DNA of 7,524 nucleotides from a virus (taxonomy: Duplodnaviria; Heunggongvirae; Uroviricota; Caudoviricetes). Every line of letters starts with the position of its first letter. Position 1 is the stretch's first letter. This document shows, piece after piece, positions 1-7,524 of this stretch. The stretch is from positions 1 through 7,524 of IMG/VR virus record IMGVR_UViG_2693429642_000014. The stretch is one strand, 5' to 3'. The notes under the pieces are model-generated. The model did not search any database, was not told the origin of the DNA, and saw nothing but the letters and a program-made list of their open reading frames with translations. The position numbers were made by a program, and so were the translations under genes.

Positions 1-618
1 GCTGCATCTGTCCTTACGGATATCCGTGGTGGGTTTATCGAACTCATCCGCCACAGCCCCGCCCGTGTAACCACACTCATCAGAGCGGTAGGTCCACATA
101 CAGGTGTTCGCCAGCATGATACGACCGGGAAACAGCGCCCCGTCCGTCTCGGTCAGTGTGGCCAGCACAAACGAGGCCGTCATGGCTGTCAGCTGCGACA
201 TCTGCTCCACCACCCAGCGGTCACTCAGCTCCTGCTCCGGGTCCGCCTCCGGATTGCCCGCAACGAAATTCACCGCATCCAGAAAACGGGCATACACCCG
301 GCGGCGGACCACCGTGGCCCCCACCAGGCTCTGCAAATCCTCCGCCATTCCGGTGACAAGACCAAACAGATTGGACACCGTCAGCAACGGTCTGGCACTG
401 CTGCCCTTCCCGCTCATCTCAAAACCGCTACCGTCAATCGGGTATGCCTGATATTGCCGCCCCTGCCAGGTGACCGGCTCCCCTTTTTCATTCAGCTCAT
501 TGCAGAAAAAATACCGCTCACCGCCCTGCACCGTCAGGTCGATTTCCCAGAGCACCACCCGCGGTGACTGCTCTGATTTAACCGACTCGTTCAGACTTTC
601 TTCGTGAATATCCTGCAT
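1..618 (-). CDS. L: minor tail protein L (lambda gpL family); partial, C-terminal ~25 aa lie beyond the window start
   Basis: Reverse-strand translation from ATG at 618..616 gives MQDIHEESLNESVKSEQSPRVVLWEIDLTVQGGERYFFCNELNEKGEPVTWQGRQYQAYPIDGSGFEMSGKG...PGRIMLANTCMWTYRSDECGYTGGAVADEFDKPTTDIRKDRCS, open to position 1. Matches remembered lambda gpL (MQDIRQETLNE...VVLWEIDL...GERYFFCNE...KGEPVTWQGRQYQ...PGRIMLANTC.WTYR.DECGY) block for block. An alternative in-frame ATG lies at 630..628. Not in the ORF track because no stop falls inside the window. Confidence 0.85.
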   Translation of the reverse strand, partial: MQDIHEESLNESVKSEQSPRVVLWEIDLTVQGGERYFFCNELNEKGEPVTWQGRQYQAYPIDGSGFEMSGKGSSARPLLTVSNLFGLVTGMAEDLQSLVGATVVRRRVYARFLDAVNFVAGNPEADPEQELSDRWVVEQMSQLTAMTASFVLATLTETDGALFPGRIMLANTCMWTYRSDECGYTGGAVADEFDKPTTDIRKDRCS

Positions 619-630
619 ATATCCGCCCAT

Positions 631-654
631 AAAAAAGGGGCGCAGACGCGCCCC
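631..654 (-). terminator. rho-independent terminator (minus-strand sense), likely the porin moron terminator
   Basis: Plus strand reads AAAAAA GGGGCGC AGAC GCGCCCC. On the minus strand this is a perfect 7-bp GC-rich stem, 4-nt loop, then T6, about 175 nt downstream of the porin stop and directly abutting the L start region. Confidence 0.7.
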
Positions 655-749
655 GAACAATAAAAGTCCAATTTAAAATAAAACCAATAAAGGTAATAAC
701 AGAAAGTTAAATCAGCACATGCCAGATGGCAATTGCTGATCGCAGTGAC

Positions 750-772
750 CAATGAAAACTGTGTTTTCATTG
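750..772. repeat. perfect 10-bp inverted repeat (hairpin) in the porin 3' flank
   Basis: Plus 750..759 CAATGAAAAC and 763..772 GTTTTCATTG are exact reverse complements separated by 3 nt (TGT). No flanking T-run on either strand, so not a classical terminator. Confidence 0.5.
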
Positions 773-827
773 ATACAGGCCGCCTGTAAGGGCAGACGGC
801 CCGTATTTATTAACTTATCAGCAATAA

Positions 828-1991
828 TCAGAACTGATAAGTCATACCCACAGCAACGATATTATCTGTCGCAACACCGGCTTTCCGGGTAAATTCACTT
901 TCATCAATCAGGTTAATTTTATAATCAACATAGGTGGACATATTCTTGTTAAAGTAATAAGTCGCTCCGACATCAATATATTTAACCAGATCCTGATCGC
1001 CATGGTTCACACCACCAACCATAACATCCTGTCCGCGGGACTGAAGGTAGGCCAGGGACGGGCGCAGACCAAAATCAAACTGATACTGCAGTACCGCTTC
1101 AAAGTTTTGCGCTTTATCTGCAACTCCTTTATCACCAAAGGTCGTCAGATTCTGAGTTTCGGAATATGTTGTAGCCAGGTAAAGGTTGTCAGCATCGTAT
1201 TTTAGTCCGACTCCCCACATCTCAGCGTGTTTACCTTTTGCAACACTACCGGAATCAACAACGATCTGCTTTTCAGTCACTTTACCGGTTAAAGGATCAG
1301 TTTGTTCAATCGTCAGAGTACCATTCAGACCTTTTTCCTGATTATTGGTTCGGTCCGCATTAATATATGCGGCAACGATACCAAAACCTTCATATTCATA
1401 ACTGGCTGAGAAACCGTGACCATCACCATTAGCTTTCCGGAGATCACCCCGATCATTTTTACCCTGGTACTGTGCCGCAAAATTCAGGCCATCGACAAGC
1501 CCAAAGAAATCTGTATTACGATAGGTTAATACCCCGGAAGTACGGGCTGTCATGAAGTTATCGGTCTGGGTCCAGCCATCACCGCCAAACTCTGGTAATA
1601 CGTCAGTATAAGAACCAACATCGTACGCAATACCATAGTTACGACCATAATCAATGGTGCCAAACTCACCAAACTTCAGACCTGCAAATGCAAGACGGGT
1701 TTTATTACCCGCAGCACCCTCTGATTCAGCTTTATTACCAGAGAACTGATATTCCCACTGACCAAAACCAGTCAACTGGTCATTAATCTGAGTTTCACCT
1801 TTAAAGCCCAGACGTGCGTATGTCTTATCTCCATCATCCCCCTTATCACTGGAGAAATAATGGAGTGCAGTTGCACGCCCATACACATCAAGTTTATTGC
1901 CATCTTTATTGTATACTTCTGCAGCCTGCGCCCCCGCTGCAAAAATTACAGCTGCTGCCACAGCTGAAAGTGCCACTGTCATTTTTTTCAT
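828..1991 (-). CDS. outer-membrane general porin, OmpC/OmpF/PhoE superfamily, closest by eye to the NmpC/Lc/OmpD prophage-type porins; 387-aa precursor with predicted 23-aa signal peptide
   Basis: ORF with ATG start and AAGGA Shine-Dalgarno about 8 nt upstream. N-terminus [23 protein letters not shown]|[12 protein letters not shown] is a classic Sec signal with AQA cleavage site and porin mature start. Conserved porin blocks present: [108 protein letters not shown], and C-terminal YQF. Gene is markedly more AT-rich than the flanking tail genes. Confidence 0.92.
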
Positions 1992-2046
1992 GATTTAATC
2001 CTTATTTAAACTGAACTATTCATGCATAGAGATGTCATGAACAAAA

Positions 2047-2104
2047 CTCAAAATATTGTAAATTAAATTACGGGTTCAATTTTTATTTTGTTTCAAAATG
2101 TAAA
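2047..2104 (-). promoter_or_regulatory. putative OmpR-binding boxes and promoter region of the porin gene
   Basis: Minus-strand sequence TTTACATTTTGAAACAAAAT (plus 2104..2085) matches the first 16 nt of the E. coli ompC C1 OmpR site as I remember it (TTTACATTTTGAAACATCTA). A second similar element TTTACAATATTTTGAG lies at plus 2062..2047. Both sit 55-115 bp upstream of the porin ATG in an AT-rich intergenic region. The -35/-10 hexamers could not be placed confidently. Confidence 0.4.
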
Positions 2105-2197
2105 AAAACAACTTTGATAGCACTTTATGTCAAGACAAAACAAAAATAACAAGCAAGCAAATTAATAAACGATGCTTTTAGGTTTTTTCTCAAAAAC

Positions 2198-2539
2198 TTA
2201 TCTTATTACCTGTTCCATCATACAACTGAAATCGCTGTACCGGGCGTTATCCGTAACACTCCACTCCCGGCACACCACCCTGACCGTCCGGTTATGTTTC
2301 GGGGGCTTCCACAAAAAAGCCCGGTAACCACCATGCCATGACAGAAACGCGGACAGTGCCTCCCGCTCAGCATCCGTTGTCACCCGAAAAACCACCTGAA
2401 AGGTCTTCAGTTGCGCATTCAGTCCTGCCGGACGACGTTGCTGATAACCGTCGCCAAACTTCACCGTCATCACCGACGGTTTCTCCGTCACCTGCATCCC
2501 TTCCCGGGGACACCAGTGAAGGGTCTTAATCTCATCCAC
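2198..2539 (-). CDS. M: minor tail protein M (lambda gpM family)
   Basis: Translation ...IKTLHWCPREGMQVTEKPSVMTVKFGDGYQQRRPAGLNAQLKTF...HGGYRAFLWKPP...VVCREWS aligns with remembered lambda gpM (MKTFRWKVKPGMDVASVPSVRKVRFGDGYSQRAPAGLNANLKTY...HGGWKSFLWTPP...VTCAKWS). Start is GTG at 2539..2537 (in-frame TGA immediately upstream), preceded by GGAGGAA 6 nt upstream, and it overlaps the H stop codon. Confidence 0.9.
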   Translation of the reverse strand: MDEIKTLHWCPREGMQVTEKPSVMTVKFGDGYQQRRPAGLNAQLKTFQVVFRVTTDAEREALSAFLSWHGGYRAFLWKPPKHNRTVRVVCREWSVTDNARYSDFSCMMEQVIR

Positions 2540-5500
2540 TCAGCATTCCTCCGTCACGACGCATGGATAACATCACCGCCTGTACCCGCTGGTCAATCAG
2601 CTGCACAAGACTGCCTGCCGCCTCCGGCCCTATCTGTCCGTTAGCCCCGTCATTCTGAATGGCGATATGGTAGACCGGGGAATACACCAGACCGGCACTG
2701 CCGTTCATACTGCCCACCGCGCGTACACCCAGCGAGCCATCCGCCGCCCGGGTCAGGGGCATTATGGCTTCAGGTCCTGCTTCCCCCATCAGCCCGGCCC
2801 CTTTTGCAAAGGCAAAGTACGTGGGCGTATCCACAATACTGTTGCTGTACGCGCTCAGGTTTGCCGAGGTATACACGCCGCCTTTTGCATTGGCCACCGC
2901 ACCGCCCAGCCAGTCACCAATGCTGCCAATAAATCCTCCTGCACCGGACATACTGTTTGCCGCCGTCTTAATTCCGTTGACAATCGCGGCATTCATAAGA
3001 ACTTTTGATATTTCCTGCAGCACTGATGAGGCCCAGTTGCGCCATTCCACTTTATTCCCGTTCAGCATCTCCGTGATGTTATTCACCATCCCTGAGATAC
3101 CCTCCGTCGCAAGCTGTGCTGCCTGTGAGGCGTAATCGGACGCATTATCCACCCAGTTACTGAGCCCCTCCTGCAAGCCTTTCTGCCAGTCCGCACGCTG
3201 CACATCCGATTCGGCATAAAAGGCTGCCTGGTCCTTAAGGCGTTCGCTCAGATACTGCGCGTTCTGTGCCCGTGCCTGTCTGTAAAAATCCTCACTGATA
3301 TCCCCGGCCTGATACTGAGACTGAAGGTCCGCATCCTTCTGGCGGAAGCTGTCGCGGATCTGCTGCAACTCCCGCATGCGTTCCCTGGCTCGTTCTCCCT
3401 GCCCGTACCCCAGCAGTTCGGCTTCATTTGATGCACGCGCAGCCACATTATCATTCTTCAGGGTCTCTTCCCGGGATCGCAACTGTTCCCGGATTTTTTG
3501 CTGGTCAATCAGGGCCGCGTTACGCAGCAGTTCCTGCTTCTGCATCTCCGTCAGGGTTTTCAGTTCGCCCTGCGCAGTCTGGTACTTCAGCTTCACCAGC
3601 TCTGTATTCTGACCCGCCAGTGCCAGTTGCTCTTTCTGCTGCTTCAGTAGCCGGGAAAAACTGTCTTCCGCTTTTTCCGTCTCTGATTTTCCACCCCGGG
3701 ATTTGGGTTTGTTCGCCTCGTTATTACGCCAGGCTTCCAGAGCATTACTGATATAACGCTGTCTCGCCTCCTGATACGAATCCCCCACAAAACCAAGGTC
3801 ATCCGCCGCATACCCCAGCCGGGCACGCTCTTTTTCCTCCCCCTTCAGTCGGGACAGGGCCAGCTCACGTTCTGTTTTTGTCAGGGCGCTCTGCTGTTTA
3901 TCATCCAGGGTGGCCTGCGGCAGCCGTAACGGTACATTCACCAGTCCCTGACGCTGCTGAAGCAGTTCATTCCCCAGCCCCAGCAGACGGTTGAATTCCG
4001 TATGCTGGCCGTTCATGACCAGCAGTGACTGATACGCTTTATTCTGCTCTGCCGCCTGCTGACGAATTAACGCCACACGGCGATCTTCCAGTCCGGCAAG
4101 CACATCCTGAATGGACTGCGCCTTTTCCTGCATCTGTGCCAGACGGGACTGCTCAACAGCAAGCTGCTCTGTTGCCTGAGCAAGCCCTTCCGTTACAGTT
4201 TTCACCGAGGTCAGATGGTTTATCATGAATCCGTCACCGGTCGTCCAGCCCGGGTTCGCCAGAACATACTGATATCCTGCGATTTTTTCCTGCAGGGATT
4301 TCACCCGACTGGCCTGTTCATCAATCAGCCGGTTCTGCTCTGTCAGCGCCGCCCGTGTTCGTCCTTCATTATCTGAGGCTTCAGGCAAAGACATTGACGG
4401 CGTTTTATGCGCGATTTCATCTATCGTCAGTGCATACTGGCGCGCTGACTCCCTGGCCTGCTCCTGATTCTGGTACAGCGTATACCATGCTGCTGCCCCC
4501 AGCATCACCAGTCCGGGTACGCCACCAACCAGTCCCAACGCACCAGTCATCAGACGTGAGCCCACCGCCGTTGTACTGTTCAGCGCATTCTGGGCTGCGG
4601 TTCTGGCAGCAATATTTCTGTTCAGGCGTTCCTGTGTGGCCGCCAGACGGGCTTCTGCAGCAATCTGCATCTCCGTCCCGCGGGCTGCCGCCACAGCCTG
4701 CTGTGCACGGTACACGGCTGCCCTTGCCCGCGCCGTGGCAATCTGCGTCCCCCTGAGCTGTGCTTCCGCCAGTGCCACTTCATTACGTGCTGCCGTCACA
4801 AGTCCTGCCGTGGCAGACACCGCTCCGGAGGCCATATTGCCAAAGTACCGGGCAACCCCGACGGCAACCAGCGCACCCACGGCTGTTGCCACATTATCAA
4901 TCTGTCCGGCAACACCGTTCAGCACGCCGGAGAGCGTTTTTGTCACCCCGCTGGCCTCATTCGCGCCACCCACCCAGGCCATAAAGGCGTTTTCCACCTT
5001 TGTGATACTACCGGAAACCGTTTCCGGCATGGCCGCATATTCATCACGCAATACCCCCAGCTGGCTGATTAACGCAGGGACCACTTTATCCGCCGTCAGT
5101 TTGCCGTCGTCCGCCATCGCCTTAAGGTCTTTACGGGCCACGCCCATACCCGCAGCCAGTGCACGTACGATCCGATCTCCGCTTTCATTGACCGAATTAA
5201 ATTCCTCACCGCGTAACACCCCCTGTGCCAGCGCCTGGCTGAACTGGGTGATCACCGAGCCCGCCTCTGCCGTACTGGCACCGGAGATTTTCAGCCCCGT
5301 GGAAATGGCCTCCGTCACCTTCAGTACATCACCGGCACTGTAGCCATATTCACGCATTGAGGCTGCCGAGCGGGCAAACAGGGCCGCATTATCTGAAAAT
5401 GCCGTGCCCGTCCGCTGGCTGATATCCATCAGCACTTTCTGTGATGACGAAAATTCATCGGATGACTGCGACGCCTGTTTCAGTCGGGCATTCACGGAAC

Positions 5501-5774
5501 TCCATTCATCGGCCAGAGAAATCAGGTGCCCGGTGGCAAAGGCACCTGCAAATGCCCCCGCCGTTCCGGCAACTGAAGCGCGGATTTCCGTCAACTGGCT
5601 GTTCAGCTCAGCCAGGGCGCGTCGCTGCTCCCGGGCGACTGCGGCAGCCTGACGCCCGCCATTCTGCAGGGTCCGGTAATATTCACTGCCCATGCGGGCA
5701 GCCCGCTGGATCTCCGACTGGAATGACTGCGAATTTGCCGAAATTTTGATAATCAGTTCACGTAACGTCGCCAT
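2532..5774 (-). CDS. H: tail length tape measure protein (lambda gpH family), 1080 aa
   Basis: Long Ala/Gln/Arg-rich, coiled-coil-type ORF with an internal hydrophobic segment (GALGLVGGVPGLVMLGAAAW). C-terminal region ...NWASSVLQEISKVLMNAAIVNGIKTA...IAIQNDGANGQIGPEAAGSLVQLIDQRVQAVMLSMRRDGGMLSG aligns with the remembered lambda gpH C-terminus (...VVINNDGTNGQIGPAALKAVYDMARKGARDEIQTQMRDGGLFSG). ATG at 5774 is preceded by GGAGAAAGGTGA. Sits between the G/T chaperones and M as in lambda. Confidence 0.95.
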   Translation of the reverse strand: MATLRELIIKISANSQSFQSEIQRAARMGSEYYRTLQNGGRQAAAVAREQRRALAELNSQLTEIRASVAGTAGAFAGAFATGHLISLADEWSSVNARLKQASQSSDEFSSSQKVLMDISQRTGTAFSDNAALFARSAASMREYGYSAGDVLKVTEAISTGLKISGASTAEAGSVITQFSQALAQGVLRGEEFNSVNESGDRIVRALAAGMGVARKDLKAMADDGKLTADKVVPALISQLGVLRDEYAAMPETVSGSITKVENAFMAWVGGANEASGVTKTLSGVLNGVAGQIDNVATAVGALVAVGVARYFGNMASGAVSATAGLVTAARNEVALAEAQLRGTQIATARARAAVYRAQQAVAAARGTEMQIAAEARLAATQERLNRNIAARTAAQNALNSTTAVGSRLMTGALGLVGGVPGLVMLGAAAWYTLYQNQEQARESARQYALTIDEIAHKTPSMSLPEASDNEGRTRAALTEQNRLIDEQASRVKSLQEKIAGYQYVLANPGWTTGDGFMINHLTSVKTVTEGLAQATEQLAVEQSRLAQMQEKAQSIQDVLAGLEDRRVALIRQQAAEQNKAYQSLLVMNGQHTEFNRLLGLGNELLQQRQGLVNVPLRLPQATLDDKQQSALTKTERELALSRLKGEEKERARLGYAADDLGFVGDSYQEARQRYISNALEAWRNNEANKPKSRGGKSETEKAEDSFSRLLKQQKEQLALAGQNTELVKLKYQTAQGELKTLTEMQKQELLRNAALIDQQKIREQLRSREETLKNDNVAARASNEAELLGYGQGERARERMRELQQIRDSFRQKDADLQSQYQAGDISEDFYRQARAQNAQYLSERLKDQAAFYAESDVQRADWQKGLQEGLSNWVDNASDYASQAAQLATEGISGMVNNITEMLNGNKVEWRNWASSVLQEISKVLMNAAIVNGIKTAANSMSGAGGFIGSIGDWLGGAVANAKGGVYTSANLSAYSNSIVDTPTYFAFAKGAGLMGEAGPEAIMPLTRAADGSLGVRAVGSMNGSAGLVYSPVYHIAIQNDGANGQIGPEAAGSLVQLIDQRVQAVMLSMRRDGGMLSG

Positions 5775-5792
5775 TCACCTTTCTCCGGGCGT

Positions 5793-5813
5793 AAAAAAAC
5801 CGCCTCAGCGGTT
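5793..5813 (-). terminator. weak terminator-like hairpin between the T stop and H start (possible attenuator)
   Basis: Minus-strand sense reads AACCGC TGAG GCGGTT followed by TTTTT: 6-bp stem (4 GC pairs), 4-nt loop, T-run. Lies in the 47-nt gap between the T stop (5822) and the H ATG (5774). Confidence 0.3.
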
Positions 5814-5821
5814 CTCATCAT

Positions 5822-6136
5822 TCATGACTGTGCTGCAAAGCTCAGCGCGTCTTCCAGCGCCGCAAACGGATCCACCTCCGGCTTATCCTCATCCTCGCCC
5901 CAGCAGAGCATGGCGTCCTTCAGTGCAACATTCATCCCCTGTGCCCCGAAAACCGCTTTCACGATCTGTGCATTACGGATATCCCCGCGCTCATCACCCA
6001 GCGGGGATACCCTGTCGAACTCCATCCACATCATCGCCTCGCTCGCACTCAGGCTGTGCCGCAGTTCGGATAACGTGCGCCCCAGACGGAGCGCAAGTCG
6101 CATCAGAAAGCGTATTTCCGGGCGGGCTACTTTTTT
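5822..6136 (-). CDS. T: T portion of the G-T tail assembly chaperone fusion, reached by programmed -1 frameshift from G
   Basis: The -1 frame relative to G is open from the slippery heptamer through to TGA at 5824..5822. Shifting at A AAA AAG gives ...KKVARPEIRFLMRLALRLGRTLSELRHSLSASEAMMWMEFD..., continuous with the 93-aa ORF in the track (5822..6103). Position between G and the tape measure gene matches lambda G/G-T. Confidence 0.8.
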   Translation of the reverse strand, partial: KKVARPEIRFLMRLALRLGRTLSELRHSLSASEAMMWMEFDRVSPLGDERGDIRNAQIVKAVFGAQGMNVALKDAMLCWGEDEDKPEVDPFAALEDALSFAAQS

Positions 6137-6501
6137 CTGGCCGCCTCTCCATCGGCGATCAGATCCAGTGCCTGACGCAGCAACCGGGCATGTACCGGAC
6201 CATAGACGACCAGCACCTGCTCCCGATCGTCCGCAGTGAACACCCGCTGCAGATCCGTATCACACAGCACATCGCAGAACAGCGTCACATCCGCTTCCAG
6301 ATTACGGCGGGTTTTCGCCCCCCCCGACAGAGTTTCGTCACCCGTATCACCGTCATTAAGCACTTCCCGCCACAGATACCAGGCCTCTGCCGAAGGTTCC
6401 CGCAGCACCACGCTGACATTTTCCCATTCAGGCACCCGCACCGTTTTATGGCGAAACCCCGACAGTCTGGCCAGTGCCAGTGTTTTCAGATCCTTTTTCA
6501 T
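6127..6501 (-). CDS. G: tail assembly chaperone G (lambda gpG position)
   Basis: ORF ends ...GEAARKK* with the slippery site at its 3' end. I prefer the ATG at 6501..6499 (MKKDLKTLALARL..., GGGGA Shine-Dalgarno about 9 nt upstream, 14 nt after the V stop) over the track start at 6549, which would overlap V by 34 nt. Acidic, small protein as expected for gpG-like chaperones. Call rests on position and the frameshift architecture. Confidence 0.75.
   Translation of the reverse strand: MKKDLKTLALARLSGFRHKTVRVPEWENVSVVLREPSAEAWYLWREVLNDGDTGDETLSGGAKTRRNLEADVTLFCDVLCDTDLQRVFTADDREQVLVVYGPVHARLLRQALDLIADGEAARKK
6130..6136 (-). other. programmed -1 ribosomal frameshift slippery heptamer A AAA AAG
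   Basis: Plus 6130..6136 is CTTTTTT, i.e. A AAA AAG on the minus strand in the G zero frame. These are the last two sense codons before the G stop (TAG at 6129..6127). Same heptamer class as E. coli dnaX. Confidence 0.8.
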
Positions 6502-6515
6502 GATGACTCGTCCCC

Positions 6516-7247
6516 TTATCCGGCTGCTGCGCTCACAGTCACGGTGCATTCAACAGACGTCACACTCTGTGCCCTCTCTGCCGAATCGGTCACCACGCAG
6601 GTATATTTCCCCGCATCGGCGGACTGCGCGTTTGGCTTACTGAAGGTGTCAGCCGTCTGCCCCTCAACCGGCTGACCGTCCTTCTTCCAGGCGTATTTAT
6701 ACGGCGGCGTTCCCCCGTTGGCACTGACTGACATTGTCAGCAGCGCACCGGTATTCACGGTAAGTGTTTTATCCAGATTTTTCACAAACGCCAGCGGTAC
6801 CACAAAGGACACCGGTTTGCCTTTCAGACGCAGTGAAAACGTTGCTGCCACCACGCCGTTGGTACCGGATGACCAGGTGTGCTGACGCACTTCCGCCAGG
6901 AATTTAAAGCCCTTTCCGGACGGAAACTGCACCTTAAACGCATACAATGAGTCATTGTCATAGGCATCACGCAGGGCATTCTGGGCCTGATTCAGATAAA
7001 AATTACCCGACATGGAAATCTCGGACGATGCGCCCAGACCGTTGATGTTCTCCTGCTCCGTGGAGCAGAGCGTGGTCACATCAATATCCTGTTTCTGACC
7101 GGCGGTGAACTGGACTTCCTTGATGGAGCAGTCCAGGCGCAGATATTCCGCCTTCTCCATAGTTTCAGCAGTCGCCGGGGCAGATGAAATCATCACCTGC
7201 GTCAGCTGTGAACGTTCATACAAAGCAGACATTCGTAACCGGCTCAT
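6516..7247 (-). CDS. V: major tail (tube) protein with C-terminal Ig-like domain (lambda gpV position)
   Basis: First gene of the tail block, immediately upstream of G. The C-terminal ~80 aa (LTVNTGALLTMSVSANGGTPPYKYAWKKDGQPVEGQTADTFSKPNAQSADAGKYTCVVTD...) has the hallmarks of a bacterial Ig-like domain, as found at the C-terminus of gpV. No recognisable identity to lambda V in the N-terminal domain. Start is uncertain: ATG 7247 has GGAGG about 20 nt upstream (too far), with alternative ATGs at 7232 and further in. Confidence 0.7.
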   Translation of the reverse strand: MSRLRMSALYERSQLTQVMISSAPATAETMEKAEYLRLDCSIKEVQFTAGQKQDIDVTTLCSTEQENINGLGASSEISMSGNFYLNQAQNALRDAYDNDSLYAFKVQFPSGKGFKFLAEVRQHTWSSGTNGVVAATFSLRLKGKPVSFVVPLAFVKNLDKTLTVNTGALLTMSVSANGGTPPYKYAWKKDGQPVEGQTADTFSKPNAQSADAGKYTCVVTDSAERAQSVTSVECTVTVSAAAG

Positions 7248-7288
7248 TTAAACCGTCTGGTCTGTTTCCTCCGGCTCTACAAAAATAA

Positions 7289-7310
7289 TGTCCATCATTT
7301 TTAATGGACA
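7289..7310. repeat. 7-bp inverted repeat TGTCCAT(N8)ATGGACA just upstream of the transposase-like ORF (possible IS terminus or operator)
   Basis: Plus 7289..7295 TGTCCAT and 7304..7310 ATGGACA are reverse complements. Begins with TG, as IS termini often do, and lies 8 bp before the ATG at 7318. Confidence 0.3.
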
Positions 7311-7317
7311 CTATCGT

Positions 7318-7524
7318 ATGAAACACCGGACCTGGATCACTGAAGCTTTACGTCTTCACTTTGAAGAACATTTACCCCGGGTTGTGGCCGGGCGTCGCCT
7401 GGGTGTACCAAAATCAACAGTTTGTAGTATGTTCGTGCGCTTTCGGAGAGCTGGTCTTTCGTGGCCTTTGCCCGCAGGCATGTCGGAGCAGGAACTTGAT
7501 GCCTGCCTTTACGGACAATTTTCC
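7318..7524 (+). CDS. partial ORF (69 codons, open to window end): HTH N-terminus resembling IS21-family IstA transposase
   Basis: Translation MKHRTWITEALRLHFEEHLPRVVAGRRLGVPKSTVCSMFVRFRRAGLSWPLPAGMSEQELDACLYGQFS. The pattern (basic HTH with STV, then RA.AAGLSWPLP....EL...L) matches what I remember of IS21-family IstA N-termini, e.g. IS408-like ...STV.EYLRRAKAAG..WPLP..LDDAALEARLF. Divergent from the tail operon. No BLAST was possible. Confidence 0.5.
   Translation, partial: MKHRTWITEALRLHFEEHLPRVVAGRRLGVPKSTVCSMFVRFRRAGLSWPLPAGMSEQELDACLYGQFS

Follow-up and report, generated by a model that had tools for sequence, protein, structure and literature searches.

Many phages, colicins and hydrophilic antibiotics enter through the major porins, which are also dominant antigens of the cell surface. 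Temperate phages may bring porins of their own, as do PA-2 with Lc and DLP12 with NmpC, and with these genes comes an RNA element: ipeX reportedly is the untranslated stretch from the nmpC stop codon to the terminator, an identical stretch is said to follow lc, and Lc is reported to lower OmpC through ipeX (Castillo-Keller et al. 2006, J Bacteriol 188:576). Here we analyze a 7,524-nt stretch of DNA (hereafter the window; positions 1 to 7,524 of the IMG/VR Caudoviricetes record IMGVR_UViG_2693429642_000014) that carries a porin gene between the tail genes M and L. This gene belongs to an inserted cassette with a 3′ untranslated region (3′UTR) homologous to that of lc and nmpC, and the cassette recurs at the M–L junction; we consider it likely that it serves lysogenic conversion, replacing host porins with the phage's own. 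IpeX itself is cited as a repressor of both ompC and ompF in three papers (PMC5745476, PMC3333887, PMC5069750).

An inserted porin cassette separates tail genes M and L

An earlier note, made from the letters of the window alone, had proposed a complete, co-oriented porin gene as a moron between M and L. This reading held: the porin open reading frame (ORF) lies on the minus strand, like all genes of the window (in the order V, G, T, H, M, porin, L), and Pfam profiles identified its flanks as M and L (Table 1). Alignment of the junction with that of relatives, a check that the note had suggested, made the boundaries of the insertion readable. Against an empty site with the same M allele (locus L013), homology on the M side stops after …CAGGT (window position 2208) and restarts on the L side exactly at the ATG (618), which delimits an insert at ~2207-619 whose left edge lies 10 nt inside M. 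Where the empty junction reads ...GAGCAGGTGGTGAACTGATGCAGGAT, the window reads ...GAACAGGTAATAAGATAAG[...]GGCGGATATATGCAGGAT, and the insert itself supplies the last three codons and the stop of M (2198-2207), turning VVN-stop into VIR-stop. From its exact ATG onward, L of the window is 98% identical in nucleotides to L of porin-less phages. In empty related junctions M and L overlap as TGATG, an arrangement that we take to hold for lambda too; the insert-derived purine-rich GGGCGGA before the L start codon (GGGYGGA or GAGTGGA in all alleles) probably replaces this translational coupling.

The GC content was 0.30-0.46 across the insert vs 0.57-0.62 in the flanks, which bears out the impression, gained by eye in the earlier note, of an AT-richer segment. 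Variable presence between otherwise adjacent conserved genes and a deviant base composition thus coincide in this element, and the Shine-Dalgarno sequence, signal peptide and strong intrinsic terminator that the note had listed are all in the window sequence. As for transcription signals, the terminator is clear and the upstream region is conserved with an OmpR-type box, whereas the candidate promoter is only a weak match, which the scan did not return. As an optional, AT-rich insertion with its own upstream region and terminator, the element is a porin moron in the sense of the note. The term, after Hendrix and Juhala, stands for cargo that forms an autonomous unit within the late operon of a phage.

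The cassette encodes an intact general diffusion porin with a hypervariable loop

Family profiles, known structures and a predicted fold place the protein among the general diffusion porins of Enterobacterales (OmpC/OmpF/PhoE). It matched Pfam Porin_1 (PF00267) over profile positions 1-337 of 337 (E = 1.3e-140; 469 bits vs a cutoff of 23.7) and the NCBIfam 'porin OmpC' subfamily (496 bits vs a cutoff of 484); because it passes the latter cutoff, RefSeq annotates the cassette gene as 'porin OmpC'. Matches in the Protein Data Bank (PDB) were OmpC (2.4e-128), PhoE, OmpK36/37 and OmpF, at E values from 1e-128 to 1e-109. An AlphaFold (AF2) model derived from 63 sequences, with a mean predicted local distance difference test score (pLDDT) of 77.7, is a 16-strand barrel, which Foldseek superimposed on OmpC 2j1n with a template modeling (TM) score of 0.90 at 58% identity. 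Alignment with K-12 OmpC revealed conservation of the PEFGG motif of L3 and of the pore-lining Arg, Asp and Glu residues, and the protein ends in YQF, that is, with the C-terminal aromatic residue of the beta-signal. The model and the alignment agree with the family architecture, in which L3 folds into the lumen and its acidic residues face a basic cluster. Its nearest relatives are phage porins of the Lc/NmpC type (68-69% identity) together with chromosomal porins labeled OmpC or OmpD (up to ~70%); in the protein comparison with Lc, NmpC, OmpD and OmpC called for by the note, it does group with general porins. It belongs to a clade of its own, within which identity is at least 78%, vs ~70% or less to everything else.

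Pairwise Nei-Gojobori comparisons between alleles returned an overall ratio of nonsynonymous to synonymous divergence (dN/dS) of 0.06-0.13, with dS of 0.6-1.3 between most alleles, and the ORF was intact in 36 of the 36 loci examined; the porin gene is under strong purifying selection. The ratio was 0.03-0.06 for barrel, periplasmic turns and L3, and 0.15-0.26 for the external loops (0.07 in one of nine within-clade comparisons). Among the surface loops, L4 is short and L5 is extended, by ~26 residues relative to K-12 OmpC and by ~20 relative to Lc; the model renders L5 as an additional β-hairpin (strands 222-231 and 238-246, pLDDT at least 81), and its alleles differ from the window by alternative sequences and by deletions of 3, 10 or 25 residues. 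Alleles are also mosaic. The window porin is identical to that of loci L005-L010, whose M is only 80-83% identical, and it matches the L001 allele over about the first 290 residues before diverging; recombination breakpoints therefore lie both inside and beside the cassette.

The porin gene is followed by a structured, IpeX-like 3′UTR

The 200 nt from the porin stop codon to the T-run of the terminator fold into three hairpins, an AU-rich single-stranded linker and a terminator whose last T lies 12 nt upstream of the L start codon, with a minimum free energy of −78.2 kcal/mol (z = −9.0). Nine distinct 3′UTRs of the clade showed compensatory changes in 8 pairs, and 99.1% of cells in their alignment were paired, vs 37-45% with the partners slid. 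Since an Rfam scan of the window gave nothing in the cassette at E up to 1, IpeX was compared directly. The region downstream of nmpC (DLP12) and lc (PA-2) has the same layout (z = −8.2) and shares the linker motif and terminator sequence. Indeed, a covariance model built only from 3′UTRs of the M–L clade (R1) gave one full-length match per Lc/NmpC-clade locus, directly after the porin stop codon (34-44 bits; E ~1e-5 to 1e-7, a rough estimate), including full-length matches to the ipeX regions of PA-2 and DLP12 at 40.8 bits (E ~3e-7). R1 likewise matched the E. albertii ipeX region and a P1-like element, each once and over its full length, the latter at 50.6 bits. In 17 chromosomal porin loci from ~15 other species, R1 yielded one weak match (18.9 bits), ~1.3 kb from the porin gene. 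Across clades, compensatory changes affected 24 of 38 pairs, with 95.9% of cells paired, in an alignment that was fitted to the model and so leans towards the structure. Together, these data establish the 3′UTR structure and its homology to the ipeX region of lc/nmpC. A 59-residue ORF within the 3′UTR (591-770, minus strand) was rejected as a gene: it has no family match, crosses the hairpins and terminator into L, and contains a 13-nt indel between alleles.

A conserved upstream region carries an OmpR-type box

Alignment of 13 distinct upstream regions uncovered blocks that are conserved across alleles with a coding dS of ~1. One of them, an OmpR-type box, contains TTTACATTTTGAAAC (2104-2090), a 15-mer that stands in identical form upstream of ompC in E. 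coli K-12; it occurs once in the window, where chance predicts 0.02 matches when up to two mismatches are allowed. We take it to be the C1 OmpR site of ompC, or part of it. Other alleles carry TTTACATTTTGTTAC, presumably closer still to the general OmpR half-site pattern, and PA-2 and DLP12 have a similar upstream box. No tandem in-phase OmpR sites were recognized in the porin upstream region. A multiple alignment with the upstream regions of ompC, lc and nmpC was abandoned, as only the shared OmpR-type box was informative in it. The box lies 5 nt upstream of the −35 hexamer of a candidate promoter (TTGAAC/TATTTT), for which we propose weak, activator-dependent activity with a start near 2043 and a leader of ~52 nt. 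The claim that the cassette has its own upstream regulatory region therefore stands as far as conservation and the OmpR-type box go, and does not extend to a consensus sigma-70 promoter, which the scan did not return at its threshold.

The cassette is optional and faithful to a single junction

We next assessed how often the M–L junction is occupied. An artificial empty-site query, made of the last 247 nt of M joined to the first 250 nt of L, matched without interruption, at identities up to 95.6%, in 1,183 of 5,426 complete E. coli genomes, whereas the cassette, counted at a coverage of at least 80%, was present in 110 of them (~2%) at 82-94% nucleotide identity. A porin carried universally at this junction, which the earlier note had named as the mark of a standard module, is thus not what these genomes hold. 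Sources of cassette carriers were humans, animals (cattle, pigs, mice and deer), food and wastewater, and designations as Shiga toxin-producing E. coli (STEC) are frequent among the listed strains. The exact window porin protein is indexed in 478 blocks of an assembly collection, with GCA_011915165.2 among the assemblies that carry it; natural lysogens with the cassette include E. coli G1/2 and SCU-104. Some RefSeq genomes contain two copies of the cassette, and three separate prophage contigs of IMG taxon 643348545 each show M-porin-L (IMGVR_UViG_643348545_000009, _000013 and _000008; loci L018, L022 and L023).

On the other hand, the M-porin-L arrangement was found in none of 50,697 deposited phage genomes; 42 deposited phage records hold a porin at 55-69% identity, and none of these matched the M-porin-L query stretch. 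The location is therefore unusual with respect to described phages, as the note had it, but it is no singular event in E. coli. In the open-access papers searched, no porin at the M–L junction was described, and two leads ('second OmpC' and 'OmpC-like') turned out to be unrelated. No clade member occurred among the species-representative genomes of the GTDB set, where the best match was 69% identical, and the close relatives with a species name were all E. coli, plus one Citrobacter farmeri.

Placement within IMG/VR was uniform. M lay upstream and L downstream in each of the 28 loci where porin identity was 80% or more and sequence upstream of the porin was available, and one further locus starts at the porin and has L downstream; the M alleles of these loci range from 48 to 98% identity to M of the window. 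By contrast, the 51 IMG/VR loci of the Lc/NmpC clade (69%) were all without M and without L. The same placement applies to the Citrobacter farmeri allele (84%) and to an allele at 78% whose tail module has a tape measure of the lambda type (TMP_2); every examined porin that is at least 78% identical sits between M and L. An IMG/VR sample anchored on M had an empty junction 52 times, a porin 25 times and other cargo 0 times, by which the idea of a general cargo hotspot was rejected for this sample; the junction seems to take up this single cargo type with high specificity. Of 80 M-anchored loci, two have no normal L after M: in L227 (4336-4683) L begins at the usual overlapping position and is cut short after ~115 codons, and in L235 there is no normal L downstream of 1811. 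The cassette is an optional but recurrent accessory module, and its clade is old, with a dS of 0.6-1.3 between alleles, and site-faithful.

Complementarity of the linker to the ompC and ompF ribosome-binding sites

RNAduplex predictions of the full UTR or the linker against the ompC, ompF and own 5′ regions were dropped, as they yielded long, non-specific AU-rich duplexes. Because this approach did not discriminate, we adopted the longest contiguous complement (Watson-Crick plus G-U) of the linker to positions −40 to +15 of K-12 ompC and ompF, evaluated against 1,000 shuffles. Two motifs emerged in the window (Table 1), one with a target that includes the ompC Shine-Dalgarno sequence GAGGG, the other with a target that includes the ompF Shine-Dalgarno sequence and with a core, TTATTACCTT, that does not vary within the clade. 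At the homologous linker position, DLP12 IpeX carries a motif that likewise covers the ompC Shine-Dalgarno sequence and was equaled in 0/1000 shuffles; adjoining it, TATTACCCTT is complementary to the ompF Shine-Dalgarno region. The string AAC[CT]TTCTGTTAT is common to the window linker and DLP12 IpeX, even though their hairpin sequences are completely different. The P1-like element and the L001-type alleles each carry an ompF motif, and complementarity to ribosome-binding sites occurs at the homologous linker position in all clades. In the porin mRNA of the cassette itself, neither the Shine-Dalgarno sequence nor the start codon is complementary to the linker; complementarity to lc's own leader was at chance level.

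Further genes of the window and of related prophages

The remaining window genes belong to the same tail operon (Table 1). The major tail protein V ends in an immunoglobulin-like domain (Ig_2, Ig_3 and I-set matches; residues ~154-232). In the gap between T and H, a stretch at 5793-5860 (minus strand) gave a sub-threshold Rfam match to isrK, an Hfq-binding small RNA (27.1 bits vs a gathering score of 50; E = 0.009); its 3′ hairpin plus T7 run (AACCGCTGAGGCGGTTTTTTT) falls just before the tape-measure start codon, and a terminator-like element within a tail operon is odd in itself. The prophages with an identical porin (L005-L010) hold further cargo in their tail module (positions ~12100-16500). 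Their L–K gap contains a ClpP-like protease and an opposite-strand Arc-family gene, followed by another Arc-family gene and an antirepressor of the P22 or KilA-N type. They also carry a Cu/Zn superoxide dismutase gene (sodC) between I and J and, after J, either lom or a hok/gef fragment.

Table 1. Features of the porin cassette and its surroundings in the window, and complementary linker motifs of related elements (window positions unless a locus is named)
Feature	Position	Strand	Evidence or remarks
Whole cassette, ~1,589 nt	619-2207	−	In place of the 9 nt 'GGTGAACTG' of the empty M–L junction
Porin coding sequence, 387 residues plus stop	828-1991	−	Pfam, NCBIfam and PDB matches, AF2 model
Signal peptide, residues 1-23	1923-1991	−	Cleavage context …AGAQA/AEVYNK; same type as OmpC
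Shine-Dalgarno AAGGA, 7 nt before porin ATG	1999-2003	−	Conserved in all alleles
Surface loop L5, extended, hypervariable, residues 214-254	1230-1352	−	Alignment of 11 alleles, Lc and OmpC
Porin upstream regulatory region	1992-2197	−	Conserved blocks in 13 distinct upstream regions
OmpR-type box TTTACATTTTGAAACAAAAT	2085-2104	−	Conserved in all alleles; first 15 nt equal to 15-mer upstream of K-12 ompC
Candidate promoter: −35 TTGAAC (2079-2074), 18-nt spacer, −10 TATTTT (2055-2050)	2050-2079	−	Hexamers conserved in all alleles
IpeX-like 3′UTR, 200 nt, porin stop codon to terminator T-run	631-830	−	Fold, covariation, model R1
3′UTR hairpin 1	773-806	−	
3′UTR hairpin 2	750-772	−	
3′UTR hairpin 3	710-741	−	
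AU-rich single-stranded linker, ~55 nt	655-709	−	
Terminator GGGGCGC-GTCT-GCGCCCC (637-654) plus T6 (631-636)	631-654	−	7-bp all-GC stem
Purine-rich GGGCGGA before L ATG	622-628	−	Insert-derived; GGGYGGA or GAGTGGA in all alleles
Linker motif TTAACTTTCTGTTAT	710-696	−	ompC −19..−5, 15 bp, 2 G-U, 9/1000 shuffles
Linker motif TTATTACCTTTAT	699-687	−	ompF −16..−4, 13 bp, 2 G-U, 40/1000 shuffles
Tail gene M, 113 residues, upstream flank	2198-2539	−	Pfam Phage_min_tail 7e-33
Tail gene L, first 206 codons, runs past window edge; downstream flank	1-618	−	Pfam Phage_tail_L 1.5e-80
Tape measure H	2532-5774	−	
Tail chaperone T	5822-6103	−	
Tail chaperone G	6127-6549	−	
Major tail protein V, with C-terminal Ig-like domain	6516-7247	−	
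DLP12 IpeX motif AACCTTCTGTTATAT	L003 ~4400-4415	−	ompC −21..−7, 15 bp, 1 G-U, 0/1000 shuffles
P1-like motif TGTTATTTATTACCCTT			ompF −14..+2, 17 bp, 2/1000 shuffles
L001-type alleles, motif TTTATTACCTTCAT			ompF −16..−3, 14 bp, 6-7/1000 shuffles

Proposed function and competing explanations

We think it likely that the element is a lysogenic-conversion cassette that would replace host porins with the phage's own. The prophage that carries it is lambdoid, with a head of the HK97 type and a tail of the lambda type, and the cassette lies in the late tail operon. Its OmpR-type box and weak promoter would permit transcription from the repressed prophage, probably under EnvZ/OmpR control. The predicted product is a general-diffusion porin with a Sec signal peptide, an intact constriction zone and a long, variable L5. 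The linker of the 3′UTR would pair with the ribosome-binding sites of ompC and ompF and repress translation of the host porins; direct occlusion of these sites is the most likely, if unproven, mechanism suggested by the complementary motifs. In a lysogen, the major porins would then be partly replaced by the phage variant, which may alter both permeability and the access of phages, colicins and antibodies to the surface. During lytic growth, Q-modified RNA polymerase would read through the cassette terminator, as in other lambdoid morons, and L would then be translated from the ribosome-binding site that the cassette supplies. The selective benefit could lie in exclusion of porin-dependent phages or colicins, in altered permeability or in antigenic change.

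A broader proposal, which we regard as plausible but put forward with more reserve, is that phage porin and RNA make up a two-part unit for swapping porins. The porin mRNA would carry in its 3′UTR an sRNA-like element, the IpeX family, whose conserved single-stranded linker would pair directly with the ribosome-binding sites of host ompC and/or ompF while sparing the Shine-Dalgarno sequence and start codon of its own mRNA; the unit would have settled in the Q-lysis region, in P1-like plasmids and at the M–L junction, with alleles tuned to ompC, to ompF or to both. The ipeX-type 3′UTR in the cassette strengthens, without proving, the idea of receptor replacement that the earlier note had raised from Lc. 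As to the tail tip associated with the cassette, one locus with the identical porin has a J whose C terminus shares 99% identity with that of Stx-converting phages and of PhiR5_1. PDB entry 9wcb (2026), 'A8 gpJ central tail fiber with OmpC from E. coli EDL933', shows that J-type tail tips can use OmpC as a receptor, and therefore bears on the exclusion hypothesis.

Several observations weigh against these proposals. The scan for a consensus sigma-70 promoter upstream of the porin was negative at its threshold, and the candidate promoter matches 8 of 12 consensus positions. The complementarity statistics of the window are modest (9/1000 shuffles for ompC, 40/1000 for ompF), whole-linker RNAduplex energies did not separate the targets from the control, and the linker also forms a 13-bp run with the cassette's own 5′UTR, upstream of its Shine-Dalgarno sequence (31/1000 shuffles). 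Alleles of the L001 type have lost the ompC motif and kept the ompF motif alone. One review holds that IpeX acts without base pairing to these mRNAs (PMC3617542, 2013), whereas another speaks of base-pairing-dependent regulation (PMC5069750). Finally, the receptor of the J type shared with Stx phages and PhiR5_1 was looked for and not found, so self-exclusion by the cassette is not established.

In a simpler account, the porin matters and the 3′UTR does not: the cassette would provide an extra or alternative general porin for nutrient uptake, permeability or antigenic variation, its hairpins would stabilize the mRNA and insulate the tail operon, and OmpC and OmpF would go unregulated. Stable 3′ hairpins are indeed common mRNA stabilizers, and the non-discriminating duplex energies, the window p-values of ~0.01-0.04 and the review that denies base pairing by IpeX (PMC3617542) would all be accommodated. 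We nonetheless hold this account to be rather unlikely, because linker motifs are conserved as well as the hairpins: TTATTACCTT is invariant in the clade, and AAC[CT]TTCTGTTAT is retained in DLP12 IpeX despite wholly different hairpin sequences. Moreover, IpeX-like UTRs accompany phage porins in three unrelated contexts and are not found beside the chromosomal porin genes searched, and IpeX is cited as repressing both OmpC and OmpF (PMC5745476, PMC5069750).

Another possibility is that the cassette acts mainly in the lytic cycle, with the outer membrane remodeled or saturated late in infection through the late transcript, for example to keep released virions from adsorbing to debris or to exclude competitors during the burst. 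Its position inside the late operon, in the same orientation, agrees with this, since by lambda biology Q-antiterminated transcription should cross it, and other surface-protein cargo is found in lambdoid tail regions (lom and sodC in related loci). Against it stand the cassette's own conserved upstream region, OmpR-type box and terminator, the classic layout of genes expressed from repressed prophages, together with the slowness of porin assembly and OmpC turnover relative to the late lytic period; Lc of PA-2 is expressed in lysogens, and the PA-2 record (J02580) annotates lc with CRP sites. We judge a mainly lytic role improbable. Least probable is a silent or decaying passenger gene. The K-12 nmpC gene is inactivated by IS5, and one RefSeq genome (H46) annotates the cassette gene as two 'porin' fragments; yet decay is excluded by the low dN/dS (0.06-0.13) maintained across alleles at a dS of 0.6-1.3, and the ORF, intact in 36/36 loci, and the conservation of both the upstream blocks and the 3′UTR structure argue against silence as well. 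Replacement of host porins in the lysogen thus remains the reading that we favor.

Significance and relation to known systems

A cassette that installs its own porin, and perhaps silences those of the host, would change phage, colicin and antibiotic entry and surface antigens in one step. Its placement and site fidelity were unexpected, and it is common enough to matter for the reading of 'second ompC' genes: under the RefSeq label 'porin OmpC', it readily passes for a second chromosomal ompC when strains are typed or resistance is studied. The literature on the mode of action of IpeX is inconsistent, and the seed sequences and targets defined here make the mechanism testable. If the proposed pairing is correct, IpeX would work by an ordinary base-pairing mechanism, contrary to at least one review, and the hypervariable L5 hairpin of this clade would become a candidate outcome of an arms race against phages that bind porins. 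Phage porin and IpeX form a unit that recurs in three phage contexts unrelated to one another, namely the Q-lysis region, P1-like plasmids and the M–L junction.

Chromosomal OmpC of E. coli, with which we group the Citrobacter, Salmonella and Enterobacter porins labeled OmpC or OmpD, has the same fold and pore architecture as the window porin, and its gene shares 15 identical nt of the upstream site with the OmpR-type box. In contrast to ompC, the window porin gene is prophage-borne and strain-variable, lies away from the ompC locus and has no divergent micF; its product has a short L4 and a long L5, the reverse of K-12 OmpC, and its cassette has the IpeX-like 3′UTR that is not adjacent to the chromosomal homologs searched. 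The lambdoid morons lom, bor and sodC are likewise autonomous, AT-rich cargo for envelope proteins between late genes, but they belong to different protein families, occupy different insertion points and differ from the cassette by its extra RNA regulatory arm. Prophages of the P1/P7-like plasmid type come closer, with an NmpC/OmpD-type porin at 61-66% identity, an IpeX-like 3′UTR (the 50.6-bit match to R1) and a 17-bp complement to ompF, set among ddrB/ParB, SSB and lysozyme genes on a different replicon and in no tail operon. One such porin (L177, 4001-5402) has 406 residues and 61% identity, and ~110 E. coli plasmid records carry this type.

The closest counterparts are lc of PA-2 and nmpC of the cryptic prophage DLP12. 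Like the window gene, each encodes an OmpC/OmpF-family porin that is borne by a temperate phage and has a signal peptide; identity to the window porin is 68-69% over the full length. Their cassettes follow the same layout, from the (C/T)TTACAT(C/T)TTGAAA upstream box through the coding sequence to a ~170-200-nt 3′UTR in which three hairpins precede an AU-rich linker and a terminator of the GGGGCG type; this 3′UTR is recognized by the covariance model of the M–L clade and shares the linker motif for the ompC ribosome site. The differences concern setting and detail. The window clade has an L5 ~20 residues longer and hypervariable, and unrelated hairpin sequences, and the CRP sites annotated in the PA-2 record have no identified counterpart in the window cassette. 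Both lc and nmpC adjoin lysis genes, with nmpC between Q and the lysis genes and opposite in orientation to these and to quuD, whereas the window cassette lies between M and L on the strand of the late operon; the Q-lysis location is a positional habit of the known examples and no functional requirement. By sequence, then, the element is homologous to the lc/nmpC-ipeX cassette in all its parts (regulatory box, porin, IpeX-like UTR and terminator), a new clade at a different and specific site rather than a new kind of system.

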